A DNA stretch of 64,000 nt, taken from positions 7,247 through 71,246 of the forward strand of contig CAVSOM010000013.1 of NCBI GenBank assembly GCA_963729495.1, in the 5' to 3' direction. Source of the DNA: an uncultured Gemmatimonadaceae bacterium (GTDB lineage Bacteria > Gemmatimonadota > Gemmatimonadetes > Gemmatimonadales > Gemmatimonadaceae). Positions 27,132 through 55,809 of this stretch are shown here, one piece after another. A model generated the notes under the pieces. That model ran no database searches and had not been told where the DNA came from. It saw nothing but the letters and a program-made list of their open reading frames with translations. The position numbers and the translations under genes are program-made. Numbering within the stretch: position 1 is the stretch's first letter; each line of letters begins with the position of its first letter.

Positions 27132-28275
27132 ATGGCGATCGAAGGCCCCCTCCGCGAACTCGGCATCCACGACGTCTTCCAGCTGCTCGACCTGAGCCGC
27201 AAGACGGGCACGCTGCGCGTGACCTCGGAGCTGCGCGACGACGAGGGCATGGTGCACTTCGCCAGCGGCCGCATCATCCAGGCCAGCATCCGCAGCCGGC
27301 CGATGTCGCTGGAGCAGCTGCTGCTGGCGTCGGGCAAGATCACCGATGCCGACGTGGCCGCGGCCCACGCCCGCGCGGGGACCGAGACGACCGGGGGCGC
27401 GCTGGCCGACGCGCTCGTGGCCGGCGGCGCCGTGTCGCAGCGCGAGCTGGATCGCGCAGGTGCGGCAGCAGGTGGAGGCCGTGGTGTTCGAGCTGATGTC
27501 GTGGCAGGAGGGGTTCTTCTCCTTCGAGGAGCTGCCCGTCGCGTCGCTGCCCGCCGACACCCGGGTCAGCGTGTCCACCGAGTCGCTGCTCATGGAGGGG
27601 GCGCGCCGCATCGACGAGTGGTCGCGGATCGCCGAGCGCGTGCCCAATCTCTCGGTCGTGCCGCAATTCGCGCCCGTGGCCGGCGAGCACGACGCCCAGC
27701 TCGACCTGCTGCCGCACGAGTGGGAGGTGCTGACGATGATCGACGGCGCGCGCGATCTGCGCGACATCGCCGGCTCGCTGGGCCGCAGCGATTTCGAGGT
27801 GGCGCGCGTGGCCTACGGCCTCGTGACCACGGGGATCGTGGAGCTGAAGACGCCGGCGCGGCGCGGCCGCGATTCGCGGCCGGTGGCGGTGGACGGGGCC
27901 GCTCCCCTGGAGCGGGCGCGCGCCGCGATGGCCGATCGCGAGTTCGCCTCGGCGCTGGAGGCGGCCCGGGCCGCCGTCGACGGCAACGGCACCGACGCCC
28001 GCCTGCTCGCCGCCCGCGCCCTCGTCAAGCTGAGCCGGTATCCCGAGGCGCTCGACGAACTGCGGCGGGCGGTGCACGCCGACCCCCTCACGCCGCGGGT
28101 CCACTTCGATCTGGCATTCGCCGCCGCCCGGGTGGGCGAGTTCGCCACGGCGCGCGCGAGCTGGGAGCACTTTCTGCGGCTGTCGCCGACCGGCCCGGAT
28201 GCGGCGCGCGCCCGGTCGTCGCTCGAGGCGCTGACGCGGCTCATGAACCTGCTCGAGGCCGACGCCGATGACTGA
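27132..28275 (+). CDS. PATAN (DUF4388) domain protein with C-terminal TPR region (frame broken near 27451-27458 as sequenced)
   Basis: ORF 27132..28271 starts MAIEGPLRELGIHDVFQLLDLSRKTGTLRV..VHFASGRIIQA (DUF4388/PatA-N-like opening). The frame of ORF 27346..28275 continues QVRQQVEAVVFELMSWQEGFFSFEE...IDEWSRI... plus TPR-like helices. It is a paralog of 32332..33959. Confidence 0.7.
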
Positions 28276-29140
28276 CGACATCCGGCGCTGGAGCGACGAA
28301 CTGGCGCGCGACCCGGCCAGCCTGGCGTTTCTGCCGCTCGGCGAGGCGCTCCGCCGCCAGGGGCAGTTGGACGTCGCCCGCCGGGTCGCCCTGCGCGGCC
28401 TGGAACGCCATTCCCACCACCCCGACGCCCACGACCTGCTGGCCCGCGTGTACGTCGACGCCGGCGAACTGGAGAAGGCGTTCGACGAATGGGACATGGC
28501 GCTCCGCCTGGCGCCCGAACATACCGGTTCTCTCAAAGGCCTGGCGTTCGTGTGCTTCCAGCAGGGGCGCTTCGAGGACGCCGAGGGCTACTTGCGCCGC
28601 GCCGCGCTCGGCGATGCCCCAGACGCGGGCATCGGCGCCGCGCTCGACACCGTGCGCCGCAGCACGGGCTCGCTCCGCGCGGCCGACGTCGAGGCGGCGG
28701 CCGCGGCCAACGCGGCGGACGCCCCCTCCGCGCCGGCGTACCTGTTCGCGCCGGTGCTCGACGGCGGGGAGCAGACCGCCCTGCTGCTCGACGCCTCGGG
28801 GCTCGTCCTGGCCGGCGCCTACTTCACGGCCGACGGCCGCGACGTCGCGCCGGAGGTCGGCGCCCAACTCAGCGGCGTGTCCGACGAGGCCGACCGCGCC
28901 ACGCGGCACCTCGGACTCGGCGTGTGGACATCGATCGTGTTCGAGACCGAAGTGGCCGTGGTCGCGATGACGCCGGCAGCGGACGGCGGCTTGCTCGTGC
29001 TCGCCGCGTCGCGGGCCACGCCGCTCGGGTTGCTGCGCCGGCTGCTCGACCGCTGCGCCGAGCGCGCCCGCGCGTGGCTCGCCCGCGGCGCGGCCGGTGG
29101 CGGGGCGGGCGGCGGCACGGCTGCCGGGGGGCCGCCATGA
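28268..29140 (+). CDS. TPR + Roadblock/LC7 (MglB-fold) fusion protein
   Basis: ORF 28268..29140. N-terminal TPR helices (..LARVYVDAGELEKAFDEWDMALRLAPEH..), an Ala-rich linker, then a Roadblock-like C-terminus (ALLLDASGLVLAG...VFETEVAVVAMTPAADGGLLVLAAS). Confidence 0.65.
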   Translation: MTDDIRRWSDELARDPASLAFLPLGEALRRQGQLDVARRVALRGLERHSHHPDAHDLLARVYVDAGELEKAFDEWDMALRLAPEHTGSLKGLAFVCFQQGRFEDAEGYLRRAALGDAPDAGIGAALDTVRRSTGSLRAADVEAAAAANAADAPSAPAYLFAPVLDGGEQTALLLDASGLVLAGAYFTADGRDVAPEVGAQLSGVSDEADRATRHLGLGVWTSIVFETEVAVVAMTPAADGGLLVLAASRATPLGLLRRLLDRCAERARAWLARGAAGGGAGGGTAAGGPP

Positions 29141-29483
29141 GTTCCCCGTTCGCGGGCATGCTGCAGTCGCTCATGCGGCTGCGCGGCGTGTCGTCCACGA
29201 TGCTGGTGGACGAACACGAGGGGATGATCATCGACGCCGTGCTGCAGTTCGGCCAGGATGGCGACCGCGTGGCGGCGCTCGCCGCGTCGCTGCACCGCAA
29301 GGCGCGCCTGTCGGCCGCCGCGGCGGGGCTGGGCGGGGTCACGTTCATGGAACTGGAGGCCGAGGGGGGCGCATCTGCGCCGCGGGCCGCGGCGACATGG
29401 TGCTCGTCGTGGTCGCCGCGCCGGCGGCCAACGTGGGGCTGATGCGGGTGGAGCTGCTCCGCGCGGTGCGGGAGCTGGGATGA
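29137..29483 (+). CDS. Roadblock/LC7-domain protein (frame broken at G-run 29364-29369 as sequenced)
   Basis: ATG 29137 overlaps the upstream stop (ATGA). Sequence reads MSSPFAGMLQSLMRLRGVSSTMLVDEHEGMIIDAV...VTFMELEAEGG, then the frame of ORF 29097..29483 gives RICAAGRGDMVLVVVAAPAANVGLMRVELLRAVRELG. Confidence 0.65.
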
Positions 29484-29956
29484 CCACGCGCGCCGTGGAA
29501 TCGTGGCTCCAGCCCCCGCTCCAGCAGTTCGTGGACGAGGCCCGTGTCACGCTCGCCCTGCTCCTCCTGCCCAGCGGCCAGGTGCTGGCCGAGCACGGGT
29601 TCACGCGGTCGCTGGACGTAGCGTCGGCCTGTGCGCTGGCGGCGGCGATTCACGCCTCCGGGGCGGAATTGGGGCGCATGCTCGACGGGCGGCCGTTCAG
29701 CGGGCTGCACCACGCCGGCCAGGACCGCCAGGTCTTCCTGGCCGAGGCGAGGACGCCCCGGGGCACGTACATTTTCCTCACGGTGTTCGACGAGGAGAGT
29801 TCGATCGGACTCGTCCGGCTGTACTTTGACGAGTTCGCGGCCCGCCTGGCGGCGGCCGCCGAGCCGGGGGGCGAAGCCGAGTCCGAGCCGGTGCTGGCCG
29901 AGAACTTCGAGCGGGACCTGAATCGCAGTCTGGCGGCGCTGTTCGGCCGGGCCTGA
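29480..29956 (+). CDS. mglB: MglB-like Roadblock/LC7 protein (candidate GAP partner of the following GTPase)
   Basis: In-frame part of ORF 29258..29956 from ATG 29480 (ATGA overlap). 158 aa with Roadblock-like core LLLLPSGQVLAEHGF...QVFLAEARTPRGTYIFLTVFDEES. Its position directly upstream of the MglA-like gene matches the mglBA arrangement. The symbol is tentative. Confidence 0.55.
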   Translation: MTTRAVESWLQPPLQQFVDEARVTLALLLLPSGQVLAEHGFTRSLDVASACALAAAIHASGAELGRMLDGRPFSGLHHAGQDRQVFLAEARTPRGTYIFLTVFDEESSIGLVRLYFDEFAARLAAAAEPGGEAESEPVLAENFERDLNRSLAALFGRA

Positions 29957-29980
29957 TTCCTCACCACCTCCCATCCTTCC

Positions 29981-30587
29981 GTGTCCCTCGTCAACTACGC
30001 CACCCGCGAGATCACCTGCAAGATCGTCTACTACGGACCGGGCCGGTCCGGGAAGACGACCAACTTGCACTACATCTACGGGCAGGTTCCCGACGACCGG
30101 AAGGGCAAGATGGTGTCGCTCGCCACGCAGACGGACCGCACCCTGTTCTTCGACTTCCTGCCGCTCGACCTGGGCACGATCTCCGGGTTCACCACCAAGT
30201 TCCAGCTCTACACGGTGCCGGGCCAGGTGTACTACCAGTCCACCCGCAAGCTGGTGCTGCAGGGGGCGGACGGCGTGGTGTTCGTGGCCGACAGCCAGCG
30301 GCGCCAGCTCGACGAGGACATCGAGAGCCTGCAGGATCTGCACGCCAACCTGGCCGAGCAGGGGGTGGACGCGCGGACGCATTCCGCTCGTCATCCAGTA
30401 CAACAAGCAGGACCTGCCGCGCGACCTGATCCTGGCGCCGGACGAACTCTCCGAAGCGATCAACTTTCGCGGAGTGCCGGACTTCCCGGCCGACGCCCTC
30501 CACGGCGCCGGGGTGTTCGAGACGCTCCGCGGCATATCCGAGATCGTGCTCAAGCGGCTGAGCGCGTCATCGGGCAACGCGAGGTAG
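29981..30587 (+). CDS. mglA: MglA-family Ras-like small GTPase (frame broken at ~30380 as sequenced)
   Basis: ORF 29981..30991 opens [29 protein letters not shown] (P-loop), [11 protein letters not shown] (intrinsic Arg region) and [10 protein letters not shown] (the Thr-for-Asp G3 variant typical of MglA). After ..[11 protein letters not shown] one extra nt shifts the frame. The next frame gives [12 protein letters not shown] (NKxD) ...[17 protein letters not shown] and stops at 30585-30587. Confidence 0.8.
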
Positions 30588-30607
30588 CGTGTGGCGGCGG
30601 ACCGCGG

Positions 30608-32330
30608 ATGCGGTTCGAGAGCTTCGCGGCGGCGCCGGCGAACGAGGCGGCCGTCGCCGCGGCGCGCGCCGTGGCTGACGCGCCAGGAGTCACCCACAAT
30701 CCGCTCTTGATCCACGGCGGGGCCGGCGTGGGGAAGTCGCATCTGCTGCTGGCGATCGCAACGGCGTGGCGGACGAGGTGGAGGCGGTTGCCTGGCGGCG
30801 ACCGAGTTCACCGACGCAGTGGGACGCGGCGCACGCCACGGGCGGCGCGGCGGCATTCGAGGGCCGGCTGGTCGGGGCCGACGTGCTGCTGGTGGACGAC
30901 CTGCACCGGTTGGCCGGCCGCGTGGGGGCGCAGCGGGGGCTGGCCCGCATCGTCGCGGCGCGGGAGCAGGCGGACCGCCAGGTGGTCGTGACCGCGGACC
31001 GGGGGCTGGACCGGCTGGACGGGATCGAGAGCGTGCTCGTGAAGCGCCTCCTGCACGGCGTGAGCGTGGAGATCGGGCCGCGCGGCGAGCGGCCCGGGAC
31101 GCCGGCGGGGGGCGCGCCGCGGCCGGCGGGGTCGCTTGATTTCCAGGGCTTCGTGAGCGACATCGCGAGCGCGGTGGCCGAGCACGTCGAGGGGTGGAAG
31201 ATGCGGGTGGCCGAGGCGGTGTCGAGTTGGAACGCCGCCGGCTACCGCACGACTGCGCTCGAGCGGCTGATGGACGAGTCGGCGCCGCCCGAGAATTACG
31301 AGGGCGTGCTCCGCGGGTTCGGCGCCGCGGTGCGCCGCCTCAAGGAACTGGAGGCCGAGGCGGTGACGGCCGATCCGTCGCTGGCCGGCCACGACGCGTT
31401 CCGCGATCCCGAACGGCTGCGCGAAGCGGAAGGGATGGCGCGCCGCGCCAACAGCGGCGCGACCGAGGCTGGCGGGCCCGTCGGTGGAGTTCTCGCGCAA
31501 CGGATTCGCCGTGGGCAAGTCCGAATCAGCGCGCCGTCCGCGCCGCCGATGCCGTGTCCGCCGAGCCGGGGCGGCGGTACAATCCGCTGCTCTTCGTCGG
31601 GCCGAAAGGGGCGGGCAAGACGCACCTGCTGAACGCGCTCGGCAACGAGCTGGTCAACGCCAGCGGCGGCGCCGCCACGGTGGCCTGCGTGGCCGCGCCG
31701 GCGTGGGCCGACGAGTTTTTGGCGGCGCTGCGCGACGGCACGGCCGACGTGTGGCGGCGGCGGTACCGCCGCGTGGACGCGCTCCTCGTGGACGATCTCC
31801 AGGTCGTGGCCGGCAAGGAACGCACGCAGGACGAGCTGTATCACCTGGTGAACGACCTGCTCGGCGCGGGCAAACAAGTGGTGGTGGCGAGCGCGCGCGC
31901 GCTCCGCGATCTGGTGGCGTTCGACGATCGCCTGCGTTCGGCGCTCGAGGGCGGCCTGGTGGTGGAGATTGCGCCGCCCGACGCGGCCCTCACCGAGGAG
32001 CTGTATCGCCGCTTCCTGGACGGCGTGCCGGCGGGCCAGATCGACGCGCTCGCGCGGTACCTGGCGTCGCGCCCCGTGGCCGGTGTGCCCGACGTCATCG
32101 CCACCGTGCAGCGCCTGACCGCGGCGGCCGACGCGGTGGGCACGGCGGTCACGTTGGAGATGGCGAAGCGCGAACTCGACGGGCCGGAACCGAGTCCGTC
32201 GGCGGTGCCCACGCCCGTGCGGGCGGCGCCCGCGGTGCGCGCCGCCGCCGACGTGTTCTTCCTCGACGACGAGAAGGTCGTCTGGGACTGGCGCGACGTG
32301 GCCTCGCGGGTCGTCGAGGAGCTGCGCTGA
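30608..32330 (+). CDS. Protein with two tandem DnaA/Hda-like AAA+ ATPase modules, no recognisable DnaA domain IV (at least 3 frame breaks as sequenced; could be two genes)
   Basis: Module 1 starts at ATG 30608: [49 protein letters not shown], then (frame of ORF 30766) [14 protein letters not shown]...[33 protein letters not shown]. Module 2 reads [13 protein letters not shown] / [40 protein letters not shown]...[41 protein letters not shown]...[18 protein letters not shown] (frame of ORF 31194..32330). Frame breaks are at ~30759, ~31465-31475 and 31523. Confidence 0.6.
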
Positions 32331-32331
32331 C

Positions 32332-33959
32332 ATGGCGATCAAGGGCAGCTTGAAGGAGGCCAGCCTCCCCGACGTGCTCCAGCTCCTGGCGATGGGCAAG
32401 AAGACCGGATGCCTGAGCGTGACGCCACCGCACGAACTTCGGCTACATCTACTTCGACAAGGGGCGCATCTCGTACGCGTCCATCGTCAACCGCCGCGAC
32501 CGGCTGGGCGACATGCTCGTCAAGAACGGCATCATCAGCGCCGACGAGCTGCAGGCGGCGATCGACGCGCAGGAGCGCCACCGCGACCGTCGCATCGGCG
32601 AACTGCTCATGGACATGGGCTTCCTCTCGCGCGAGGCCCTGCGCCAGCACATCCGCGAGCAGATCGAGGAGGCCGTCTACTTCCTGTTCACCTGGAATCA
32701 GGGAACGTTCAACTTCGAAGCCGACGTCCAGCCCGAGGAGCAGGACTTCCTCGTCTCGATCAACCCCGAGTCGCTGCTCCTCGAGGGCGCGCGGCGGGTG
32801 GACGAGTGGACCCTCGTCGAGAAGAAGATCCCCACGTTCGACATCGTGTTCGAGATCGACCGCCCGAAACTGGAAAAGAGCGACGTGGAACTGACCGCCG
32901 AGCAGCGAGCGCTGCTCGAGCTGGTGGACGGCCAGCGCGACGTGCAGCAGATCATCGACGCCTCGGGGATGGGCGAGTTCGACGTCGGCAAGCTGCTCTA
33001 CGGCCTGGCCACGGCCGGCTTCCTGCACCGCATCGGCACCTCCAAGGCGGCCGGACCGCAGGTCGTCCGACGCGCGCGTGGAGGAGCACTACAACCTCGG
33101 CGTGGCGTTCTACAAGACCGGTATGTTCGACGAGGCGGTGCGCGAGTTCCGCCGCGTGCTCGATCTGCGGCCGCAGGACCTCTCGGCCCGGTTCTTCCTC
33201 GGCCTGGTGGCGCTGCGCCAGGAGCGGTGGGCCGACGCCCTCGCCGTATACGAGGAGGCCGCCGCGCGTCTGGGCGCCGCGGCCGCGGCGTACCACAACA
33301 TGGCCTACGCCCTGGAGCGGCTGGGCCGCTTCGCCGACGCGCAACGCGCGCTGCACGAAGCGGCCAAGCGCAGCGGCGGCACCAATCCGGTCATCCAGGC
33401 CTCGATCGGCATCGTCGCGCTGCGCGCGCGGCGACCTGGCGGCCGCCGACGAGGCGCTCCGCGCCGCGCGCCCCCTCTGGGCGGCGCCGCCCGCCCACGG
33501 CGGCCTGGTATCACTACTCGGCGCTCACCGCCGCGCTGCTCGGCGACCTGGCGCGCGCCCAATCACTGCTCGACGAGGCCGTCGGCGCGCATCCGCGCAG
33601 CGCCATGCTCCACAACAACCTCGCCGTGGTGCTGGAGCGCCGGAACAACCCGGGCGGCGCGTCGGCGGCGCTCGATCGCGCGCTGGCCGAGGATCCGTCG
33701 GTGCCCCAGATCCACAAGAACCTGGGCGACGTGGCCTATCGCGCCGGCCGGTTCGACGATGCCCTCGCCGATTACCAGCGGGCGATCAAGGCCGATCCCG
33801 AGCTGGGCGACGACGTCTACCTCAAACTCGGCAACATCCGCTTCCGGCAGCAGCATCGGGACGAGGCGCTCGCGCTGCTGGGAGCGGGCGCTGGCGCTCG
33901 ATCCGACCAACGCCATCGTGCGCACCAACCTCGAGGCGGTGCGCCAGGCGCCCGAATGA
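32332..33959 (+). CDS. PATAN (DUF4388) domain protein with C-terminal TPR repeats (5 frame breaks as sequenced)
   Basis: MAIKGSLKEASLPDVLQLLAMGKKTGCLSVT joins FGYIYFDKGRISYASIV...ALRQHIREQIEEAVYFLFTWNQGTFNFE...VDEWTLV.. Next come the TPRs EEHYNLGVAFYKTGMFDEAVREFRRVLDLRP, YHNMAYALERLGRFADA, AMLHNNLAVVLERRNNPGGA and IHKNLGDVAYRAGRFDDALADYQRAIKADP. It ends WERALALDPTNAIVRTNLEAVRQAPE. Pieces lie in the frames of ORFs 32332, 32513 and 33078. Breaks are at ~32424-32427, ~33065, ~33429, ~33490-33505 and ~33878. Confidence 0.65.
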
Positions 33960-35276: not shown

Positions 35277-36330
35277 GCCCACCGTCCTCGTCGTGGACGA
35301 CAGCGCGCTCATGCGGCGCGTGATCGCCGACCTGGTGGCCGAGTCGGGCGAATTCACGGTGATCGGCACCGCGCGCAACGGGCGAGAGGCCGTGGAGCGC
35401 GTGCAGGCGCTCGACCCCGACCTGGTGACGCTCGACATCGAGATGCCGGAGCTGGACGGCCTCGAGGCGCTCACGCGGATCATGCGCGACCGGCCGCGGC
35501 CGGTGGTCATGCTGAGCGCGGCCGAAACGGTGGACGGCCGCGACGCGACGCTGCGCGCGTTGGAGCTGGGCGCGGTGGATTTCGTGCGCAAGCCGTCGGG
35601 GGCGATCAGCATGGACCTGCCCGTGATCGGCGAGCGGCTGCGGGGCGCCCTGCGGGCCGCCGGCCAGGCCAACGTGGGGACGCTGGCGCTGGTGGCCGAG
35701 CGCCGGGAGCCGCCGCGCCGCGCGTCGGGGCCGCTGCCGCACGGCCCGCTCCGGGCCGTGGCCATCGCCGCGTCCACGGGCGGTCCGCGCGCGCTCACCG
35801 CCGTGCTGCCGGCCTTGCCGCGCACGCTCGACGCGGCGGTGTTCGTCGTGCAGCACATGCCGGCGGGCTTCACGAAGAGCCTCGCCCATCGTCTCGACGC
35901 GATGGGCCCGCTCCCCGTGCACGAGGCGGAGGCGGGGCAGGTCGTGCAGGCCGGTCACGTGTACGTGGCGCCGGGCGGCCTGCACATGCGCGTGGCCGGC
36001 GGCGCGGAGCCGGCGATCGCCCTGGACACGGCGCCGCCGCTGTGGGGCGTGCGGCCGTCGGCCGACCCGCTGTTCGAGTCGGTGGCCCGCGTGTGCGGCG
36101 CGCACGCGGTAGGCGTGGTGCTCACCGGGATGGGGCGCGACGCGGCCGACGGGCTGCGGGCCATCCGGGCGGCGGGGGGGCGGGCCGTGGTGCAGGACCG
36201 CGCCACGTCGACCATCTACGGCATGCCGCAGGCGGCGCTGCAGCTGGCCGGGGCCGACCGCGTGGCCCCGCTGGACGCCGTGGCCCCGGCGATCGTCGAG
36301 TACCTGACGGCCATGAGCAAAAACCTATGA
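35266..36330 (+). CDS. cheB: Chemotaxis response regulator protein-glutamate methylesterase CheB
   Basis: In-frame part of ORF 34897..36330 from GTG 35266. Receiver VLVVDDSALMR...VTLDIEMPELDG. Methylesterase motifs AIAASTGGP, VVQHMPAGFT and LTGMGRDAADG. Confidence 0.9.
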   Translation: MSSKPTVLVVDDSALMRRVIADLVAESGEFTVIGTARNGREAVERVQALDPDLVTLDIEMPELDGLEALTRIMRDRPRPVVMLSAAETVDGRDATLRALELGAVDFVRKPSGAISMDLPVIGERLRGALRAAGQANVGTLALVAERREPPRRASGPLPHGPLRAVAIAASTGGPRALTAVLPALPRTLDAAVFVVQHMPAGFTKSLAHRLDAMGPLPVHEAEAGQVVQAGHVYVAPGGLHMRVAGGAEPAIALDTAPPLWGVRPSADPLFESVARVCGAHAVGVVLTGMGRDAADGLRAIRAAGGRAVVQDRATSTIYGMPQAALQLAGADRVAPLDAVAPAIVEYLTAMSKNL

Positions 36331-37123
36331 TCGACGAACACTGGGGGCTGCGCGTCAAGCCGTTCGCCAACACGCCCGACCCGGCGTTCGTGTACCACTC
36401 CCCGGTGTTCGACGAGGGGTTCGCCCGGCTGCTCTACGACGTCACCGACCTGCGCGGCGGCTTGTCGCTCGTCACGGGCGAGATCGGCTGCGGCAAGACG
36501 ATGCTGGTCGAGGCGCTCCGCCACCGGCTGGCCGGCACCCCGTTCGACCCCTGGATCGTTCCCTATCCGCGGCTCACCGGGGCGCAGCTCCTGCAATTCG
36601 TGGCCGCGGCGGCCGAACTCGCCCACCCGCCGCGGAGCAAACCGGCGCTGGTCGCCGCCCTGCGCCGTCGCGTCGCCGACCAGCACGCCGCCGGCCGGCG
36701 GCCGGTGATCGTGGTCGACGAGGCCCAACTCGCCAGCCCCAGCCTGCTCGAGGAACTGCGGCTGCTCACGAACCTCGAAGACCGCACCGACAAGCACGTC
36801 CACGTGGTGTTGCTCGGGCAGCCCGAGTTGCGCGACCGCATCTGAAGCGTCCGCAGATAGACCAGCGCGTGAGCCTGCGCTTCCATCTCGATCCGCTCGA
36901 TGCCGGCGACGTGAGGGAGTACGTGCTGCACCGCCTGCGCGTGGCCGGAGCCACCCATGAAATCTTCACCGAACCGGCGATGACCGCGCTCGCCGCGCGC
37001 AGCGGCGGCGTGCCGCGTCTGATCAACAACCTCGCCATGCAGGCGCTGTTCGTGGGCGCGATGCGGGGCTCGCCGCGCGTGGACGACGCGCTGGTGCACG
37101 ACGTAGCCGACGATCGCCAATGA
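36327..37123 (+). CDS. ExeA-like (AAA_22-type) AAA+ ATPase (frame broken at ~36840 as sequenced)
   Basis: ATG 36327 overlaps the cheB stop (ATGA). Walker A TGEIGCGKT, Walker B VIVVDEAQ and LLGQPELRDR. ORF 36869..37123 continues ..QRVSLRFHLDPLDAGDVREYVLHRLRVAG..GGVPRLINNLAMQAL, the typical ExeA/GspA-like C-terminal half. Confidence 0.7.
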
Positions 37124-42323: not shown

Positions 42324-42350
42324 CGGCGGGGGCAGGCTCCCCGAGTTGAC

Positions 42351-42386
42351 GACGAAGCCCGCCGGCGCCCGCCGGCGGGCTTCGTC
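42351..42386 (+). terminator. Perfect GC-rich hairpin downstream of the 577-aa gene (intrinsic-terminator-like)
   Basis: gacgaagcccgccgg cgcc ccggcgggcttcgtc: a 15-16 bp perfect inverted repeat starting 27 nt after the stop. The trailing sequence gcttgtgg is only weakly U-rich. Confidence 0.55.
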
Positions 42387-42424
42387 GCTTGTGGGCCGCG
42401 CCCGCCCCGTGTTGCTTTCAGCGC

Positions 42425-43402
42425 GTGCCGTCCGACGCCGATCCGTCCGAGTCCCGCGTGACCGTCCCCGATCCACTCCCGGCGGACTGGGCCAGCGCGT
42501 ACCACGCCCCGGTCTTGGCGGCGGAGGTGGTGGCGCTGCTCGGCGCCGCGCCGCGCGTGCTCGACGGCACGCTCGGGGGGGGAGGGCACACCGAAGCGCT
42601 GCTCCACGCGGGGGCCCGCGTCACCGCCGTGGATCGCGATCCCGACGCCATCGCCGAGGCCGCCGAGCGCCTGGCGCCGTTCGTGCGCCGGGGACGGTTG
42701 CGCCTCGTGCTCGGCAACTACGCCACGCTCGACGACGCGGTGCTCGACGGCCAGCGGTTCGACGGCATCCTTCTCGACCTCGGCATCTCCTCGCACCAGA
42801 TCGACGCCACGGCGCGCGGATTCAGCTTTCGCGAGGGCGCCCCGCTGGACATGCGCATGGGGCCCGACGCCGCGCGCACGGCGGCGGAGTTCCTCAACGC
42901 CGCCGACGAGGGCGAACTGGCCTGGGTGTTCCGCGAATACGGCGACGAGCGGCGTGCCATCCGCCTCGCCCGCGAGGTCGCCCGCCGCCGCGCCACCCGC
43001 GCGTTCGCGACGAGCGACGATTTCGTCGGCGCCATTCGGGCCACGCTCGGCCCGCGCAGCGGGCCGGCCGAGTTCGCCCGCCTGTTCCAGGCCGTGCGCA
43101 TCGCGATCAACGAGGAACTGGGCGGACTGGAGCGCGCCCTCCCCGCGCTGCGCGACCGGCTCGACCCGGGCGGGGCGTTCGTCGTGATCTCCTACCACTC
43201 CGGCGAGGACCGGATCGTGAAGCGCACCTTCCGGGACTGGAGCACCGTGTGCACCTGCCCGCCGCGCCAACCCGTATGCACGTGCGGCGGCCGGTCGCTC
43301 GGCACGCTGCTCACCAAGCGGGGCGTGCGCCCCGGGGCGGCCGAACTGGCCGCCAACCCTCGCTCGCGTAGCGCGCGGCTCCGGGCATGGCGCGCCGCGT
43401 GA
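42425..43402 (+). CDS. rsmH: 16S rRNA (cytosine1402-N4)-methyltransferase RsmH (MraW)
   Basis: ORF 42389..43402 with motifs HAPVLAAEV, GTLGGGGHT, DLGISSHQ and SYHSGEDR. The annotated TTG 42389 lies in the terminator tail, so GTG 42425 (or GTG 42458) is preferred. Confidence 0.85.
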   Translation: MPSDADPSESRVTVPDPLPADWASAYHAPVLAAEVVALLGAAPRVLDGTLGGGGHTEALLHAGARVTAVDRDPDAIAEAAERLAPFVRRGRLRLVLGNYATLDDAVLDGQRFDGILLDLGISSHQIDATARGFSFREGAPLDMRMGPDAARTAAEFLNAADEGELAWVFREYGDERRAIRLAREVARRRATRAFATSDDFVGAIRATLGPRSGPAEFARLFQAVRIAINEELGGLERALPALRDRLDPGGAFVVISYHSGEDRIVKRTFRDWSTVCTCPPRQPVCTCGGRSLGTLLTKRGVRPGAAELAANPRSRSARLRAWRAA

Positions 43403-43695
43403 GCCGGCGGTGGACGCCGCGCGCCGTGATCGCCGCGGTGCTCCTCGGTTTCGTTTTGGTGGCCACGGGCGTCATTGCACGGAGGAGCTACGGCATTCGC
43501 CAGCAGCGCGCCATCCGCGACCTCGAGCGGCAGCGCGACGCCCTCGAGGCGGAACGCGTCCGGCTCACCGGCGAGATCCGCGACTCGTCGAGTCTCACGC
43601 GGCTGGCCCCGATTCTGCAGCGCATGAACATGCACATTCCCGCCGATAGTATGGTCGTCAACCTGCCGCGTCCGCGGGCGCATGATCCGGAATAG
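43387..43695 (+). CDS. ftsL: FtsL-like cell-division protein (single TM + coiled coil)
   Basis: ORF 43387..43695. Basic N-terminus, TM AVIAAVLLGFVLVATGVI, then heptad-like RQQRAIRDLERQRDALEAERVRLTGEI. It sits in the canonical position between rsmH and ftsI. Confidence 0.65.
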   Translation: MARRVSRRWTPRAVIAAVLLGFVLVATGVIARRSYGIRQQRAIRDLERQRDALEAERVRLTGEIRDSSSLTRLAPILQRMNMHIPADSMVVNLPRPRAHDPE

Positions 43696-45724
43696 CCGCG
43701 TCGGCGTCATCCACTTCACGCTCGCGCTGTTCGCGGTGGCCGTGATCGCCAAGTCGGCCAAGGTGCAGCTGGTGGACGGCCGGGCGTGGGCCGCGCAGGC
43801 GCGCAACCAGCACTTCCAGAGCCGCGACGTGCCGGCCCTGCGCGGCGACATCCTCGACGCGGCGGGGCGCACGCTGGCCGAGAGCCGCGACATGGTAGCC
43901 CTGGGCGTCAATCCGCGCGAACTCCGCGATCCGCGCGCCGCGGCCAACGCCCTGCGCCGCGCCGGCGTGGACGCGAAGTGGATCGCGCGCGCCACCGACA
44001 CGACGCGAAAGTGGGCGCCGATCCCCGCGCAGTTCCGGGCCACCGACGTCGCGGCGCTCACCGCCATGCGCGGCGTGTACGCCGACCCGGTGGTCGACCG
44101 CGTCTATCCGGGGTCGGATGCCGCCCGCCGGATCGTGGGGCGGGTGGACGCCGACGGGCAGCCGCTGGACGGCATCGAGCTGGCGCTCGACAGCCTGCTG
44201 CGCGGGCGCGACGGCTCGGCGGCCACGGTGCGCGACGGGCTCGGCCACAGCTTCGCCTCGCCGACCGCGCCCGGCGTGGCGCCCCGCGAAGGCAACACGG
44301 TGGTGCTGACACTCAATGCCGATCTCCAGCAGATCGCCGAGCGGTCGCTCGACGACGCGGTGTCGAAGATGGGCGCCGAGGGCGGCGACATCGTCATCCT
44401 CGACCCGCGCACGGGCGACGTGCTGGCCATGGCCAGCCGCCGCCAGAATCCGCTGTCCACCTCGGCCACGGCGCTCACCGAGCCGTTCGAGCCGGGGTCG
44501 ACCATGAAGCCGCTCATCGCCGCCTCGCTGCTCACTCACGGACTGGTGCGGCCCACCGATTCGGTGCCCACCTTCGGCGGCCAGCTCACGATCAACGGGC
44601 GCACCGTGCACGACGATCGCGAGGAGGGTCCCGAGCCCGGGTACCTGGCGCTCCCCGACGTCATCCGGCGGTCGAGCAACGTGGGCATCGTGCAGTTCGC
44701 GGAGCGCCTGACGCCGGGCCAGGAGTATCAGGCGCTCCGCGACTTCGGCTTCGGCACGCCGACCGGCGTGGCCTATCCCTCGGAGTCGCCCGGCATCCTG
44801 CGGCCGCCCCGGGACTGGTCGTCGCAGTCGGCGAACTCGATGGCCATGGGCTACGAGATCGCGGTGACCCCGCTGCAGTTGGCGACCGCCTACGCGGCGA
44901 TCGCCAACGGGGGCGAATTGCTGCAGCCGGCGCTCGTGCAGGAGGTCAGGACGCCCGACGGCCGCGTGCTGTACGCGCACACCCGCCAGGTGGTGCGGCG
45001 CGTGATGCCGCCCGCCGTGGCCGCCGACCTGCGGCAGATGCTGCTCGGCGTGGTGGCCGAAGGGACGGCGGTGCAGGCCGACCTCGCCACCTACCTCCTG
45101 GGCGGCAAGACCGGCACGCCGCGCCGCACGGAGAACGGCCGCTACGCCCCGCACGCGTACACGCCCAACTTCGTGGGGCTGTTTCCCGGCAACGCCCCGC
45201 AGTTCGTGATCGTGGTCAAGCTCGACGATCCGAAGGCCGCCTACTACAGCGCCAGCACGGCGGCGCCGCTCACGAAGACCATTCTCCAGGCAGCGCTGGC
45301 GGCGCGCGACGCCGCGTTGAACCGCACCCAACTGATGCACGACGTGGTGTCGCGGTCGCCCGACGCGGCCGCGCCCGACGGCCGCCCGAGCGTGACGCTG
45401 GGGGCGCGGGCCGGCGACTCGACGGCGGCGGCCGTGGGCGCGGAATCGACCGCCGCGCGCGCGGCCGCCGCGGCGGCGTTCGCCGCGGCGCCCCCCGCGG
45501 TCACGATCGCGCTTCCCGCGCCGAGCGCCGCTCCCCCGTCCGCCGCCGCTCCGCCGCGGGCGGTGCCGGCAGTGGCCGGGCTGCCGCTGCGCGACGCGGT
45601 GCGCGCGCTGCACGAGGCGGGATTCCGGGTGGAGCTGGTGGCCGGCGGCCCGCCGGCCACGACGCCGGCGGCCGGCGCTCTGGCCGCGCCCGGCGCGGTC
45701 GTGCGGCTTCGCTACGACTATTAG
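43682..45724 (+). CDS. ftsI: Division transpeptidase FtsI (class B PBP) with C-terminal PASTA-like domain
   Basis: ORF 43682..45724. TM anchor, dimerisation domain, SxxK (GSTMKP), SSN and KTGT. An Ala-rich linker leads to VPAVAGLPLRDAVRALHEAGFRVELVAGG...VVRLRY. Confidence 0.9.
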   Translation: MIRNSRVGVIHFTLALFAVAVIAKSAKVQLVDGRAWAAQARNQHFQSRDVPALRGDILDAAGRTLAESRDMVALGVNPRELRDPRAAANALRRAGVDAKWIARATDTTRKWAPIPAQFRATDVAALTAMRGVYADPVVDRVYPGSDAARRIVGRVDADGQPLDGIELALDSLLRGRDGSAATVRDGLGHSFASPTAPGVAPREGNTVVLTLNADLQQIAERSLDDAVSKMGAEGGDIVILDPRTGDVLAMASRRQNPLSTSATALTEPFEPGSTMKPLIAASLLTHGLVRPTDSVPTFGGQLTINGRTVHDDREEGPEPGYLALPDVIRRSSNVGIVQFAERLTPGQEYQALRDFGFGTPTGVAYPSESPGILRPPRDWSSQSANSMAMGYEIAVTPLQLATAYAAIANGGELLQPALVQEVRTPDGRVLYAHTRQVVRRVMPPAVAADLRQMLLGVVAEGTAVQADLATYLLGGKTGTPRRTENGRYAPHAYTPNFVGLFPGNAPQFVIVVKLDDPKAAYYSASTAAPLTKTILQAALAARDAALNRTQLMHDVVSRSPDAAAPDGRPSVTLGARAGDSTAAAVGAESTAARAAAAAAFAAAPPAVTIALPAPSAAPPSAAAPPRAVPAVAGLPLRDAVRALHEAGFRVELVAGGPPATTPAAGALAAPGAVVRLRYDY

Positions 45725-45727
45725 TCA

Positions 45728-47199
45728 ATGCAAATAGCCACGGACGTGCTCGTTCACGCGCTGCGCCAGGCCGGGCTGCTGGCCGGCACGCGTGGGCACC
45801 TGCCGGCCGTGCTCGCCGACGTCACCGACGACAGCCGGCGCGTGGTGCGCGGGGGGCTGTTCATCGCGGTGCGCGGCTGGGCCCGCGACGGCCACGATTT
45901 TCTGGACGGAGCGCTGGCCGCGGGCGCCGCCGCGGCGCTGGTGGAGGACGCCACCCGCGGCGCGCTGCCGGCCATCGTCGTGCGCGACGGACGGCGGGCG
46001 GCGGCCATCGTCGCGGCGGCGGCCTACGGGTGGCCGGCGCGCGGCCTGCGCACGATCGGCGTCACGGGCACCAACGGCAAGACGACCACGGTCCACATGC
46101 TCCGCCACCTGCTCGACGACGGCGCGGCGCGGAGCGCGTCGATCGGCACGCTCGGCGTGCTCGTGGGCAGCGGCGGCACGCCGCTCCCGGGCGGGGCGGG
46201 GCTCACCACCCCGGGGCCGGTGGAACTCCAGCGCGTCTTCCGCGCCCTCGCCGACGCCGGCGCCCGCACCGTGGCGATCGAGATGTCGTCCCATGCGCTC
46301 CACCAGCACCGCGCCGAGGGGGTGGCGTTCGACGCCGCCGTGTTCACCAACCTCACGCGCGACCACCTGGATTACCACGGCACGATGGAGGACTACCTGG
46401 CGGCGAAGGCGCTGCTCGCCGACCAGGTGGCGCCCGACGGCGCGCTGGTCGTGAACGCCGACGACGCGGCGTGGGGCGCGCTGCCGGCGCGCGGCCGGCG
46501 CGTGCGCTTCGGGGTGGCGTCGCGCGACGCCGACGTGCGCGCCGTCGACGTCGCGCCGGGTCCGCAGGGGAGCGCGTTCACTCTCGTCGTCGCGGGCGCC
46601 GCCGAGCGCCCCCGCGTAAGCCTGCCGTTGATCGGCGACTTCAACATCGCCAACGCGCTCGGCGCAGCGGCCGCCGCGTGGGCGCTGGGCGAGGCGCCGG
46701 CGCGCATCGGCGAGCGGCTGTCGTCCATGCCGCAGGTGCCCGGCCGCCTGGAGCCGCTGGCCGAGCATCCCACCGTGCTCCGCGACTACAGCCACACGCC
46801 CGACGCGTTGGAACGGGCCCTCGACGCCCTGCGGCCGTTCACCCGCGGGCGGCTGATCTGCGTGTTCGGCGCGGGCGGTGAACGGGATCGCGGCAAGCGT
46901 CCCAGATGGGCGCCGTGGTGGCCGCGAAGGCCGACGTCATCGTCGTGACCAGCGACAATCCGCGCAGCGAGGATCCCGAACGGATCATCGACGACGTCGT
47001 GGCCGGAATCGCCCCTGCCGACTACGTTCGCATGGCGGACCGGCGCGCGGCGATCGAGCGGGCGCTCGCGCTGGCCGGCGCCGACGACGTCGTGCTGCTC
47101 GCGGGCAAGGGCCACGAGACCTACCAGGTGATCGGCACCACCCACGTCCCATTCGACGAGCGGGCGATCGTGCGCGAACTGCGGGGATCGGCGGCATGA
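45728..47199 (+). CDS. murE: UDP-MurNAc-L-Ala-D-Glu:meso-DAP ligase MurE (frame broken at C-run 46901-46903 as sequenced)
   Basis: ORF 45728..46948 (GVTGTNGKTTT ... GAGGERDRGKRP) joins ORF 46906..47199 (QMGAVVAAKADVIVVTSDNPRSEDP...GKGHE). Confidence 0.9.
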
Positions 47200-48623
47200 G
47201 CATCGAGGTGCGCGCGCCCGAGCGGCGCGAGCCTCCGGCGTCGGCCCCGGAATTCTGGACGCGCGACCGGGTGGCCGATGCGCTGGGGCTCGGACCGCGG
47301 GGCGCGGGCCGGTTCGGCCGCGTCTGGACCGACACCCGCACGCTGCAACCGGGCGATCTGTTCGTGGCGCTCGCGGGGCCGAACTTCGACGGTCACGACT
47401 ACCTGGCGCAGGCGGTGGCGGCGGGGGCGGGCGGCGTGGTGGTGTCGCGCCCCGAGCGGGCGGCGGGGCTCGGGGTGCCCGTGTACGTGGTGGCGCGCAC
47501 CGAACGCGCGCTGGGCGCGCTCGCCCGTTACCGGCGGCGCGTCTGGAACGGACCGGTGGTGGCAGTCGTGGGCTCCAACGGCAAGACCGGCACCAAGGAG
47601 CTGCTGCGGGCCGCCCTCGGGTCGCGGCTGGAGGTGCACGCGTCCGAAGCGAACTACAACAACTTGATCGGCGTGCCGCTCACCCTGCTCGCGATCCCCG
47701 ACTTCGCGGACGTGGCGGTGGTGGAGATGGGCACCAACCGGCCGGGCGAGATCGCGGCCCTGCGCGCGATCGCGGAGCCGACCATCGTCGTCGTGACGTC
47801 GATTGGCGAGGAGCACCTGGAGGGGCTGGGCGATCTGGCCGGCGTGATGCGCGAGGAGCTGGCGGCGCTGGACGGCGTGCCCCTGGCGGTGGTGCCGGCG
47901 TCGCAGCCCGAGGTCGCGTCGGCCGCGTCCGGCCGAGCCGGCCGCGTGGTGGCGGCGGGGCTGGACGCGGGCGAGCTGCGGGCCGATCGCTGGCGCGTCG
48001 ACGCCGACGGATCGGGCACCGTGGTGCTGGGCGGCGTGGAGGTCCGTCCGCCGGCGCTCGGCGCGCACCACCTGCGCAACGCGATGCTCGCCCTGGCCGT
48101 TGCCGACGCCTGCGGCGTGTCCGTGGCCGACGCCGCCCGGGGAATCGAGGCGGCGCGCATGCCGGCCATGCGCGGATCGCTGGAGGCGTTGGGGGCCGCC
48201 CTGGTCATCAACGACGCGTACAACGCCAACCCCGAGTCGGTGCGCGCGGCCGTCGCGCTGCTCGCCCAGGCCGGGCACGGCCGGCAGCGGGTGGCCGTGC
48301 TCGGCACGATGCGCGAGATGGGGGTCCACACGCGGCGGGTGCACGACGAGCTGGCGCGCGAGGCGCTGGCCGGGCCGGTGGAACTGTTCGTGGGCATCGG
48401 CGAGTTCGGGGATGCGTTCGCCCGTGCCGGAGCGCCCCCTTCGCGCGTCATCAGTGCGACGGACGTCGACTCCGCGTGGCAGGCACTCGCTCCGCGACTC
48501 GAGCCCACGGCGGCGATCCTGCTCAAGGGATCGCGGGGGGTGCGGGTTGAGCGGCTGGTGCCCATGCTGGCGGCGTGGAGTGGGAAAGTTGGAGAGTCCG
48601 GCGGTCGGGCAGTCGGAGAGTAG
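47196..48623 (+). CDS. murF: UDP-MurNAc-tripeptide:D-Ala-D-Ala ligase MurF
   Basis: In-frame part of ORF 46878..48623 from ATG 47196 (ATGA overlap with murE). Motifs VGSNGKTGTKE and NDAYNANP. The last ~8 codons read into an inverted copy of the octamer repeat. Confidence 0.9.
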   Translation: MSIEVRAPERREPPASAPEFWTRDRVADALGLGPRGAGRFGRVWTDTRTLQPGDLFVALAGPNFDGHDYLAQAVAAGAGGVVVSRPERAAGLGVPVYVVARTERALGALARYRRRVWNGPVVAVVGSNGKTGTKELLRAALGSRLEVHASEANYNNLIGVPLTLLAIPDFADVAVVEMGTNRPGEIAALRAIAEPTIVVVTSIGEEHLEGLGDLAGVMREELAALDGVPLAVVPASQPEVASAASGRAGRVVAAGLDAGELRADRWRVDADGSGTVVLGGVEVRPPALGAHHLRNAMLALAVADACGVSVADAARGIEAARMPAMRGSLEALGAALVINDAYNANPESVRAAVALLAQAGHGRQRVAVLGTMREMGVHTRRVHDELAREALAGPVELFVGIGEFGDAFARAGAPPSRVISATDVDSAWQALAPRLEPTAAILLKGSRGVRVERLVPMLAAWSGKVGESGGRAVGE

Positions 48624-48648
48624 CGGGTCATCCGCGTGACGTAGTTTG

Positions 48649-48728
48649 CTGCCCGACTGCCCGACTGCCCGACTGCCCGACTGCCCGACTGCCCGACTGC
48701 CCGACTGCCAAACTGCCAAACTGCCAAA
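48649..48728. repeat. Ten tandem 8-bp units: 6 x CTGCCCGA, 3 x CTGCCAAA, 1 x CTGCCCGA
   Basis: Read directly in the murF|mraY spacer. An inverted copy (gtcgggcagtcgg, 48604-48616) lies inside the murF 3-prime end and could pair with any of the direct units. Confidence 0.9.
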
Positions 48729-48775
48729 CTGCCCGACACTTTCGTTACCGCGATCTTCCCCCAATATCCCCACTC

Positions 48776-49921: not shown

Positions 49922-49928
49922 CCGCGTC

Positions 49929-52553: not shown

Positions 52554-52556
52554 CCC

Positions 52557-53666: not shown

Positions 53667-53704
53667 GGCGGGAGGCGCGCGCGCCCTATATTGCGCGCGC
53701 GTCC

Positions 53705-55081: not shown

Positions 55082-55809
55082 TGAAGCCGGAGGACGTGCG
55101 GCCGGCCCCCGCGATTCGCGAGACTTCGCGGGCCAGGCGCCGATGGAAACGCATCGGGGTGGCGGTCCTCGCGGCCGCCATCCTCGCGTCGCCCGTCTGG
55201 GGGCGCCCGCTGCTCGCCCGCATGGCGTTCTTTCGCGTCCGCCGGGTGCGGATCGAGGGCGCGCGCTACACCGCGGCGCGTGACATTCTGCGGCAGTTGA
55301 ACGTCGATACCACGGTGTCGGTGTGGACGGATCTCGATCCCCTCGAACGCCGGGTGGCGGAACTGCCGGAGGTGCGCGCGGCGGCGATTCGGCGTAAGCT
55401 TCCAGGCACGCTGGTCGTCACGGTCACGGAACGGGTGCCGGTGGCGCTCGTCCCGACGCCGCAGGGGCTGCGGCCGTACGATGCGGACGGACTGCCGCTG
55501 CCGATCGATCCGTCGAAGACGGCGGTGGACGCGCCGATCCTGGCGCGTCGCGACACGGCCGCGCTGCGATTGTTGGGGGAGCTCCGGGAGCGGGCGCCCG
55601 AGTTGTACCAGAATGTGAGCGATGTGCGGCGAGTGGGCGGCGAGCTGGATCTCACCCTGGCGACGTTTCTCGTTCGCGCGATGGCCAATGTGACCGTGCA
55701 CCGGTTGGAAGACCTGGAACCCGTGGAACGTGATCTCGCGGCCCGTCGCCTCCAGGTCGCCGAGCTGGACCTTCGATACCGTGACCAAGTGATCGCCCGA
55801 CTCAAATGA
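55078..55809 (+). CDS. ftsQ: Cell-division protein FtsQ (POTRA domain)
   Basis: In-frame part of ORF 54145..55809 from ATG 55078 (overlaps the murC stop). TM IGVAVLAAAILASPVW, then a POTRA-like FRVRRVRIEGARYTAARDIL...LPGTLVVTVTER. Confidence 0.75.
   Translation: MMKPEDVRPAPAIRETSRARRRWKRIGVAVLAAAILASPVWGRPLLARMAFFRVRRVRIEGARYTAARDILRQLNVDTTVSVWTDLDPLERRVAELPEVRAAAIRRKLPGTLVVTVTERVPVALVPTPQGLRPYDADGLPLPIDPSKTAVDAPILARRDTAALRLLGELRERAPELYQNVSDVRRVGGELDLTLATFLVRAMANVTVHRLEDLEPVERDLAARRLQVAELDLRYRDQVIARLK

Follow-up and report, generated by a model that had tools for sequence, protein, structure and literature searches.

What does a protein built from two DnaA-type ATPase modules do directly behind the gene of a polarity GTPase? 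The question is raised by a 64,000-nt stretch of DNA from an uncultured Gemmatimonadaceae bacterium (assembly GCA_963729495.1, contig CAVSOM010000013.1, positions 7,247 to 71,246 of the forward strand), referred to below as the window. In it the gene that we call tDnaA (tandem DnaA-type AAA+ protein) lies directly after a true mglA, inside a chemotaxis (Che) and PATAN gene cluster, as the initial annotation of this DNA had described. To our knowledge, DnaA domain III has hardly been seen outside replication initiation and its direct regulator Hda. The product of tDnaA, about 574 aa long, is cytoplasmic; membership tests class it neither as DnaA nor as Hda and, judged by its domains, it is not a replication initiator. 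It seems that a replication engine has been re-used for polarity or motility signalling. With modest confidence we lean to the explanation that tDnaA acts as a nucleotide-dependent assembly switch or scaffold, which would work together with the PATAN/TPR protein encoded next to it.

The gene and its two DnaA-type modules

Two DnaA domain III regions had been read from the raw letters, and every motif then quoted was found in its place in a three-frame translation of positions 29950-32450. The spliced 573-aa product gives two PF00308 stretches (E=1.7e-69, 233.6 bits, cutoff 23), and the match quality of both modules is far beyond chance; the uncorrected frame at 31524-32327 alone matches the DnaA equivalog model TIGR00362 with E=1.4e-49. 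The profile search assigns the modules to the DnaA clade and not to another AAA+ clade. The parts of the gene are listed below; the Walker motifs, sensor I region and box VII of both modules were re-located by script.

30608..32330 (+): tDnaA, a single gene of about 574 codons after five indel corrections, start ATG at 30608, stop TGA at 32328-32330
30608..31105 (+): module 1, alpha-beta-alpha core of DnaA domain III (first PF00308 stretch, motif tables)
30716-30739 (+): module 1 Walker A, GGAGVGKS
30883-30906 (+): module 1 Walker B, VLLVDDLH
30979-31002 (+): module 1 sensor I region, QVVVTADR
31024-31074 (+): module 1 box VII, degenerate
31132..31479 (+): helical linker domain, family-specific (DFQxF...WK.RVAEA...W...GYRT..LERL...)
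31481..32175 (+): module 2, complete DnaA domain III with core and lid (phmmer against 8bv3, Foldseek)
31599-31622 (+): module 2 Walker A, GPKGAGKT
31704-31739 (+): module 2 H-motif helix
31779-31802 (+): module 2 Walker B, ALLVDDLQ
31812-31853 (+): module 2 B-motif region
31875-31898 (+): module 2 sensor I region, QVVVASAR, Asp replaced by Ala
31920-31970 (+): module 2 box VII, arginine finger replaced by Ala
32079-32117 (+): module 2 sensor-II position, GVPDV, Arg replaced by Pro
32178..32249 (+): Pro/Ala-rich spacer, predicted disordered (orthologue model with a predicted local distance difference test score, pLDDT, <50 at residues 528-561)
32250..32327 (+): conserved C-terminal peptide (invariant columns, kept in all three architectural subtypes)

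Homologues were collected from 5.8 billion proteins (1879 relatives at E<=1e-10). The orthologue P0001 (573 aa) matches the window product end-to-end with 74% identity and 100% coverage, and in a tblastn search it runs colinearly along the window in frames 2, 1, 2 and 3. The question of one gene or two, left open by the initial annotation, is now resolved: there is one gene, and its orthologues are single open reading frames (ORFs) of 566-660 aa. At least three frame corrections had been counted; when the DNA was read at each junction, five indels were needed, that is, three net frame changes and one compensated pair.

Indel 1: -1 near 30758, ATC G-C AAC in place of the expected ATC GGC AAC
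Indels 2 and 3 (compensated pair): -1 near 30790 and +1 near 30821
Indel 4: +1 in the CCC run (GGGCCCG) at 31477-31480
Indel 5: +1 near 31522

A GTG at 30589, two bases past the mglA stop, would give the six-residue N-terminal extension of the orthologues and is out of frame by one base; if it is the true start, there may be a sixth indel ahead of the ATG. The frameshifts are not a property of tDnaA; they are assembly noise over the entire window, with mglA, murE and other genes affected. Single-base indels are pervasive at 23.8-37.1 kb and occur again at about 46.9 kb. At least 14 frame switches fall in 9 of the 21 cluster genes, with an orthologue identity of 77-99% on both sides of each; the genes named are cheC/X, PATAN380, Roadblock, mglA, tDnaA, PATAN-TPR, cheR and the AAA_22 ATPase. 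The murE gene is split as well, its frame at 45725-46945 continuing in another frame at 46882-47196. Because many cluster genes are affected and the identity to orthologues is unchanged across the switches, we treated the frameshifts as sequencing or assembly indels. ORF-based annotation of the window will fragment many genes owing to these indels.

Module 2 aligns residue by residue with Bacillus subtilis DnaA domain III (8bv3; phmmer E=3e-40), and in the AlphaFold2 model of an orthologue (mean pLDDT 82.7) it superposes on 8bv3 with a template modelling (TM) score of 0.93 and a root-mean-square deviation (rmsd) of 1.5 Å (Foldseek). The initiator-specific motif, two helices between beta2 and beta3, is present in both modules of the P0001 AlphaFold2 model (module 1: E67-71, H72-85, H88-97, E100-104; module 2: E358-362, H363-376, H379-387, E391-395). 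In the orthologue P0010, modules 1 and 2 are 35-45% and 34-46% identical to canonical DnaA domain III, respectively, and 46% identical to each other. Judging from a neighbour-joining tree, in which all module 1 sequences, all module 2 sequences and the canonical DnaAs each have a clade of their own, both modules descend from one ancient duplication. Module 2 keeps GKERTQ[ED]ELFH[VL]FN and an Ile, Val or Leu at the position of Escherichia coli V211 (H-motif), and module 1 does not; we take these regions to be the single-stranded DNA (ssDNA) contacts of DnaA (H and B motifs).

The spacer between the modules had been estimated at about 130 aa. Its length (about 127 aa) is close to that, and it holds a conserved folded domain at 31132-31479 that the estimate had passed over. 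AlphaFold2 models this domain of about 115 aa as an all-helical bundle (pLDDT 83, predicted TM score (pTM) 0.66). In Pfam it has no match at E<=0.01 (sub-threshold FliJ and HopBA1 only), and a Foldseek comparison of the confident model with the PDB gave no relative (best E=4.8). The window linker is 83% identical to that of P0001, and the hidden Markov model (HMM) of the domain matches 113 of the 150 best family representatives from a search of 1.84 billion proteins. A similar refinement applies to the C-terminal end, described earlier as about 110 aa that do not resemble DnaA domain IV. Domain IV is indeed lacking, and about 65 of these residues are the AAA+ lid of module 2 (domain IIIb), followed by a disordered spacer and a conserved peptide. 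The peptide consensus, FFxDxEKxxWxWxDxxxRxIEE[LY]R, is almost invariant (invariant columns D548, F551, D553, E555, K556, W559, R567 and E570) and recurs in each of the three architectural subtypes as well as in the divergent members P0170 and P0199. Pfam gave no match at E<=0.1 for the last 70 residues of an orthologue. From this conservation, the peptide is probably a docking motif.

The absence of a DnaA-box-binding domain was borne out, since the spliced product has no Bac_DnaA_C or DnaA_N match at E<=0.01. For domain IV (PF08299) the whole product was scanned at that threshold, and canonical DnaAs under the same scan do show the domain; domain I (PF11638, DnaA_N) has no match, and module 1 begins at residue 1-6. 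Without domains I and IV, tDnaA is unable to read DnaA boxes. The profile check proposed at the outset thus found Bac_DnaA twice, Bac_DnaA_C not at all, and Hda below cutoff (TIGR03420 99.9 versus 194.8 bits; NF051883 44.5 versus 300). A beta-clamp motif of the QL[SP]LPL type was absent by reading from the N-terminus of both the window protein and an orthologue (MAVDARMRFENYVVG). On TIGR00362 the window product scores 280.3 bits, below the cutoff of 343.9, and the orthologues P0010 (type A, see below) and P0316 (type C, Gemmatimonas), from loci L004 and L087, score above it (462.7 and 440.8 bits). Types A and C pass this model, and the JGI label 'chromosomal replication initiator protein DnaA' arises, because the two modules are summed. 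Databases otherwise use 'DnaA/Hda family protein' and 'DnaA ATPase domain-containing protein' for the family; a third label, 'chromosomal replication initiator protein', is wrong.

Features of a replication origin near the gene would have spoken for an initiator. None lie nearby: the sequence TTATCCACA with <=1 mismatch occurs three times in 64 kb (1.44 expected), a chance level, and never near tDnaA. The tblastn search with P0001 found no other DnaA-type AAA+ region within the window. In Gemmatimonas phototrophica the orthologue lies at 1.87 Mb of the 4.72 Mb chromosome (CP011454.1).

Distribution, architectures and catalytic residues

Proteins of this kind had been thought rare. In Gemmatimonadota they are not: clustering at 50% identity leaves more than 100 clusters with the family linker domain. 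Wherever a member has a name or a taxonomic placement, it is from Gemmatimonadota, and a scan of one genome per GTDB species recovered 13 full-length tandem loci, all in this phylum, the remaining matches being ordinary single-module DnaA. When 120 homologues were aligned and the Gemmatimonas sequences inspected, three architectures and their catalytic states could be tabulated.

Type A: about 647 aa, lid 1 and lid 2 present, main clade
Type B: 566-581 aa, lid 1 deleted and lid 2 present, the window's subclade
Type C: about 579 aa, lid 1 present and lid 2 deleted, Gemmatimonas, including G. phototrophica and G. groenlandica

The module 1 lid of the main clade (about 75 aa, with sensor II NVRELQGALNRL, seen in the family consensus and in P0010) is absent after 31105 in the window. 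In type A both modules keep every catalytic motif, among them the arginines of box VII (ERLITRLSGG and DRLRSRFEGG) and of sensor II (NVRELQG and SVREIIG). Type B has a degenerate box VII in module 1; in module 2 its arginine finger is changed to A, L, V or G and its sensor-II Arg to P, S, A or Q. The two P-loops and the two Walker B motifs remain, also in the window copy. Module 2 of the window fails the catalytic set at sensor I (ASAR), the arginine finger (RLRSAL) and sensor II (GVPDV), and its sensor-I Asp to Ala change goes beyond the losses of the subclade. Because lid 1, the module-2 arginine finger, the sensor-II Arg and the sensor-I Asp are lost and the P-loops are kept, the window protein probably binds ATP and hydrolyses it poorly. 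The earlier suggestion of an ATP-switch oligomeriser is therefore doubtful for the window lineage, where catalytic residues have been lost.

The PATAN-TPR partner and the surrounding cluster

The gene downstream of tDnaA has the most constant association with it. The nearest neighbours in the window are the following.

28262-29080 (+): TPR-Roadblock fusion
29137-29477 (+): Roadblock gene, frameshifted
29480-29953 (+): hyp157, Roadblock-like, with a weak Robl_LC7 match (E=0.0018)
29981..30587 (+): mglA, Ras-like polarity GTPase of about 201 aa, with one assembly frameshift near 30377-30381, stop TAG at 30585-30587
32332..33953 (+): downstream partner of about 540 aa, PATAN with an MshE-type c-di-GMP-binding insert, PATAN and TPR (Pfam PatA_N, TPR)

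The PATAN-TPR gene begins 2 nt past the tDnaA stop and contains at least four assembly frameshifts. Its motif for cyclic di-GMP (c-di-GMP) at 32516-32662 scores 56.2 bits with NF053729 (cutoff 38) when the raw frame of the window is read, the orthologue giving 54.1 bits; the PATAN insert carries two MshE-type c-di-GMP-binding motifs, LVKNGIISADELQAAIDAQ and RRIGELLMDMGFLSREALRQHIREQ. The motif was shown in three PATAN-TPR proteins (window, L001 and L094), and the insert would supply a predicted c-di-GMP input to the MglA/Che cluster. The identity of MglA is clear: the orthologue at L001:9392-9997 matches Myxococcus xanthus MglA (5ymx) with E=1.5e-73 and the Thermus thermophilus protein (3t12) with 4.8e-65, and the window mglA is 96-98% identical to this orthologue, in two frames.

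The initial annotation had proposed to look for tandem orthologues beside mglA in other genomes. They occur there in 13 of the 13 scan genomes, with mglA directly upstream and PATAN-TPR directly downstream, and the same order was seen in both further metagenome orthologue clusters examined, P0001 and P0010 (loci L001-L006), and in G. phototrophica AP64. Genes of the locus are separated by 1-3 nt or overlap; for tDnaA and PATAN-TPR the spacing is +1 to +2 nt, or the two overlap, close enough to suggest that their translation is coupled. The divergent members define the core more narrowly. The locus of P0170 (897 aa) reads ileS, rluB, hyp157-like, tDnaA, PATAN(MshE motif)-TPR and Peptidase_MA_2; that of P0199 (801 aa) reads ileS, rluB, tDnaA, PATAN-TPR and Peptidase_MA_2; and P0268 (1168 aa) is followed by PATAN-TPR and then a TPR gene. 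No mglA or che genes were found in these three loci. Because the divergent members keep PATAN-TPR without mglA or che, the conserved unit is tDnaA plus the PATAN-TPR gene, and mgl/Roadblock and che genes flank this core pair only in Gemmatimonadaceae-type clusters such as that of the window. Recruitment to a GTPase/Che polarity system, as first proposed, agrees with the mglA/Che context here but is too narrow, since PATAN-TPR is the primary partner in divergent members. Among the three Roadblock/LC7-type genes, hyp157 is the only one with a homologue beside tDnaA in the mglA-free divergent locus L094.

The cluster as a whole runs in the order ftsH, ileS, rluB-like, cheW, cheY, cheA, cheC/X, a 900-aa TPR gene and a PATAN gene; then TPR-Roadblock, Roadblock, hyp157, mglA, tDnaA, PATAN/c-di-GMP/TPR, cheR, cheD and cheB; then the AAA_22 ATPase, cheW, cheW, TPR, Peptidase_MA_2, TPR, mraW, ftsI, murE ... 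murG ... ftsA. The last of these belong to a division and cell-wall (dcw) cluster at 42350-57059 (mraW 42350, ftsI 43628, murE 45725, mraY about 48.6-49.9 kb, murG 52554, ftsA 55785), which the locus adjoins. Placement downstream of ileS-rluB and upstream of the division cluster is kept in other Gemmatimonadota (L002, L003 and L087). In the che cluster (20.8-42.3 kb of the window) and in orthologous loci, cheA, up to four cheW, cheY, cheC/X and cheD are present in all, cheB in nearly all, and cheR in most, being missing from the Gemmatimonas loci. A query for the hairpin tip of methyl-accepting chemotaxis proteins (MCPs) had no match in the window or in 11 orthologous loci (L001, L002, L004, L008, L012-L015, L017, L031 and L087), a result that is only indicative, as it comes from a hairpin-tip consensus, and other parts of the genome may encode receptors. 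After cheB, at 36327-37120, lies a 265-aa AAA_22/AAA_16 ATPase with an XrtA/PEP-CTERM-associated (ExeA-like) resemblance (TIGR03015 192 bits, cutoff 324); it is a second unexplained ATPase in the cluster and is missing in the Gemmatimonas versions. Far upstream on the minus strand, at 2395-5358, is a 988-codon open frame of coding type (third-position GC content 0.91) with no Pfam match at E<=1e-5.

DnaA-type modules also occur in other combinations. The family variant P0201 (L092:8001-10217) has two such modules and a receiver domain in place of the tail peptide, among genes for a PAS hybrid histidine kinase, a REC-HD-GYP protein and Hpt/REC/Hpt/REC proteins; a metagenome scan with P0201 gave unrelated receiver-domain matches only. 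In P0191 and P0192 an MshEN domain is fused to two DnaA-type modules. At L093:2359-13973 (GCA_030620115.1, GC 0.56) four consecutive MshEN genes, three of them fused to DnaA-type modules and one of these encoding the 1990-aa P0192, lie between pilD and a TonB_C gene that is followed by pilB, pilT, pilC and pilS. The P0192 modules are 50-58% identical to B. subtilis DnaA domain III, and the HMM of the family linker domain has no match in P0191 or P0192. Because the P0192 modules are closer to canonical DnaA and both proteins are without the linker domain, the MshEN fusions represent an independent recruitment; the combination of MshEN and DnaA-type modules in a pilus cluster is apparently uncharacterised and unreported. 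A second kind of tandem DnaA-module protein, P0148 (L096:8001-10094, 697 aa, from a metagenome-assembled genome of Gemmatimonadota), has neither the linker domain nor a PATAN neighbour; its gene lies some 5 kb downstream of two bactofilin genes, and the genes around it have no Pfam match.

What tDnaA may do

If tDnaA is an assembly switch or scaffold, ATP bound at the two P-loops would promote DnaA-style head-to-tail association, inside one chain and/or from chain to chain. Recruitment of the PATAN-TPR partner would fall to the linker domain and the tethered C-terminal peptide, and the TPR array of the partner would be the obvious receptor for the peptide. Through this partner, c-di-GMP and, where present, MglA/Che inputs might drive a polar or motility output, possibly related to type IV pili. 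In main-clade orthologues hydrolysis may reset the switch, because both modules keep the full catalytic set, and the window version would be a more static, hydrolysis-poor scaffold. The receiver fusion of P0201 and the MshEN-DnaA fusions in the pilus cluster point to a signalling theme in relatives and were counted in favour of this explanation.

Several observations weigh against it. The proposed binding of the peptide to the TPR array would follow from gene adjacency and from analogy. The full-length AlphaFold2 model (pTM 0.47) gives no confident arrangement of the two modules, and their intramolecular pairing is a conjecture at the level of the model. The ssDNA-contact signature of module 2 would suit DNA-related explanations equally well. 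Moreover, a canonical dnaA elsewhere in the same genome is presumed; P0172, the canonical DnaA that scores best against the family profile, proved to be of the Patescibacteria type. Finally, frame switches are denser at 30.6-34.8 kb (at least 9 in 4.2 kb) than elsewhere in the cluster, and this peak leaves some room for local gene decay.

The boldest alternative sees the ATP-driven filament engine of DnaA exapted as the heart of a signalling machine not recognised before: the tandem protein would form polymers on chromosomal ssDNA or together with DnaA, and its tethered C-terminal peptide would carry the PATAN/TPR protein, MglA and the receptor-less Che array. Taken as a whole, with all its parts, we consider this unlikely. 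If true, it would provide a direct physical link from chromosome or replication state to pole identity, type IV pili or the choice of division plane, and the MshEN-DnaA-module fusions in the pilus cluster would mean that exaptation happened more than once. There might also be a relation to the polar DNA-containing appendages and atypical division-plane placement of Gemmatimonadota (PMC11271474). The link of tDnaA to chromosome or cell-cycle status that the initial annotation had raised is speculative.

An Hda-like regulator of replication is about as improbable. The modules would then co-assemble with DnaA-ATP via domain-III contacts, capping the filament or stimulating hydrolysis, and initiation would be coupled to c-di-GMP, polarity and division signals. 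The 36-46% identity of the modules to canonical DnaA domain III fits this scheme, as do the box-VII arginine fingers kept in both modules of main-clade orthologues, the lack of a DNA-binding domain, as in Hda, and the position immediately before mraW-ftsI-mur-ftsA, in the window as in other genomes. However, no N-terminal beta-clamp motif was read in the sequence, the TIGR03420 score (99.9 bits) is well short of the cutoff (194.8), and the module-2 arginine finger that the mechanism needs is lost in the window subclade. The constant partner is a PATAN/TPR signalling protein, and the relative P0201 carries its receiver domain in a phosphorelay locus, neither of which speaks for a replication regulator.

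In Myxococcus, FrzCD tethers Frz arrays to the nucleoid, and an anchor of this kind can be imagined for tDnaA, with module 2 keeping its ssDNA surface and ATP-dependent filaments tethering a receptor-less Che/MglA/PATAN complex to the chromosome. Module 2 has a near-canonical DnaA ssDNA pattern, which module 1 lacks, but the residues of this signature may be kept for structure. Both modules have the initiator-specific insertion, which favours helical filaments, yet there is no domain IV for loading on DNA. The absence of an MCP tip motif from the window and the 11 orthologous loci, where cheR, cheB and cheD are present, was counted in favour of an anchor; against this stand the limits of a consensus query and the chance that receptors are encoded elsewhere in the genome, and divergent members have no che genes nearby at all. 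We regard such an anchor as a doubtful proposition, on a par with the Hda-like regulator.

That tDnaA is a decaying pseudogene, with real frameshifts and an inactive gene or cluster, is very improbable. The five indels in 1.7 kb, and a frame-switch density that is highest over tDnaA, PATAN-TPR and cheR, are what such decay would give. But mglA, which is 96-98% identical to its orthologue, and the essential gene murE are also frame-switched, and the identity to orthologues is undiminished after each shift. In addition, two of the +1 sites in tDnaA were read in or beside short C/G runs, and indels at such runs are typical read errors.

Weak IstB_IS21 matches (PF01695 E=2.3e-11; 5bq5 E=7e-5) and weak PADLOC P-loop matches suggested an IstB/DnaC-type helper of transposition or helicase loading, or else an ATPase of anti-phage defence. 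Both can be dismissed almost completely, since the helper models stay below cutoff (NF038214 77.9 versus 200 bits, DnaI 34.4 versus 228, DnaC 21.4 versus 357) with DnaA models far higher and no transposase nearby, chromosomal synteny is strictly conserved across the phylum, and PADLOC matches the P-loop only (0 matched stretches), so that the mobile-element and defence readings are effectively excluded.

Full-text literature searches on MglA, PATAN, DnaA-like, Gemmatimonas with dnaA and MshEN with DnaA returned no description of the tDnaA family, and no paper in which a DnaA-type ATPase is part of a system with MglA or PATAN. The linkage of PATAN to MglA/MglB genes was noted in a survey of the small GTPases of prokaryotes (Wuichet and Sogaard-Andersen, 2014; PMC4316618), in which the entries under 'AAA' and 'ATPase' give no protein of this kind near MglA. 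Judging from its title, a preprint (10.1101/2021.06.11.447907) reports an interaction between PATAN response regulators and the type IV pilus motor. Gemmatimonadota have polar DNA-containing appendages and place their division plane unusually (PMC11271474). A polarity module predicted beside the dcw cluster would be worth testing given this cell biology, and the connection of tDnaA to the appendages is conjectural.

A phylum-wide family with two DnaA modules, a new helical domain and a docking-type peptide would open an unexplored use of initiator AAA+ modules in polarity or motility signalling. For the cell biology of Gemmatimonadota, which is poorly understood, it offers a concrete candidate, and for MglA/PATAN systems a new player; its three natural architectures with a catalytically degenerate subclade form a ready mutational series. 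It also exposes an annotation trap, in which types A and C pass TIGR00362 and carry the DnaA label.

Compared with known systems, the window follows the plan of its own family throughout: module 1, linker, module 2, the C-terminal peptide at 32250-32327 and PATAN-TPR at 32332. With DnaA, tDnaA shares the initiator-clade AAA+ fold, the two-helix insertion and the layout of Walker A/B, sensor I and box VII. It differs in having two modules per chain without domains I, II and IV (no helix-turn-helix), in its inter-module helical domain and C-terminal docking-type peptide, in its place in a signalling operon and not at oriC/dnaN, and in the loss of several catalytic residues in the window lineage. 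Like tDnaA, Hda is a paralogue of DnaA domain III and has no domain for binding DNA; it acts by AAA+ contacts. However, it is a one-module protein of Proteobacteria with an N-terminal beta-clamp-binding motif and a role in the regulatory inactivation of DnaA (RIDA), and its gene context is unlike that of tDnaA. The MshEN fusions P0191 and P0192 likewise bring DnaA modules together with an MshE-type c-di-GMP domain at a motility locus, whereas in the window the c-di-GMP domain is in the adjacent gene and the fusions are without the linker domain and C-terminal peptide of the tDnaA family. The neighbours of tDnaA are bona fide MglA, Roadblock/LC7 and PATAN proteins and can be set beside the PATAN regulators PatA, PixG and TaxP1 and the MglA/MglB systems of Myxococcus and Thermus, but unlike the cyanobacterial PATAN regulators the window PATAN protein has TPR arrays and a c-di-GMP motif and no receiver domains. 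Two AAA+ modules per polypeptide are also found in type II AAA+ proteins (p97, NSF and ClpB), some of which have one catalytically weak module. These belong to another AAA+ clade (superposition TM 0.27-0.32, rmsd about 19 Å) and form stacked hexameric rings, whereas the initiator-specific insertion in DnaA favours open helical assemblies.

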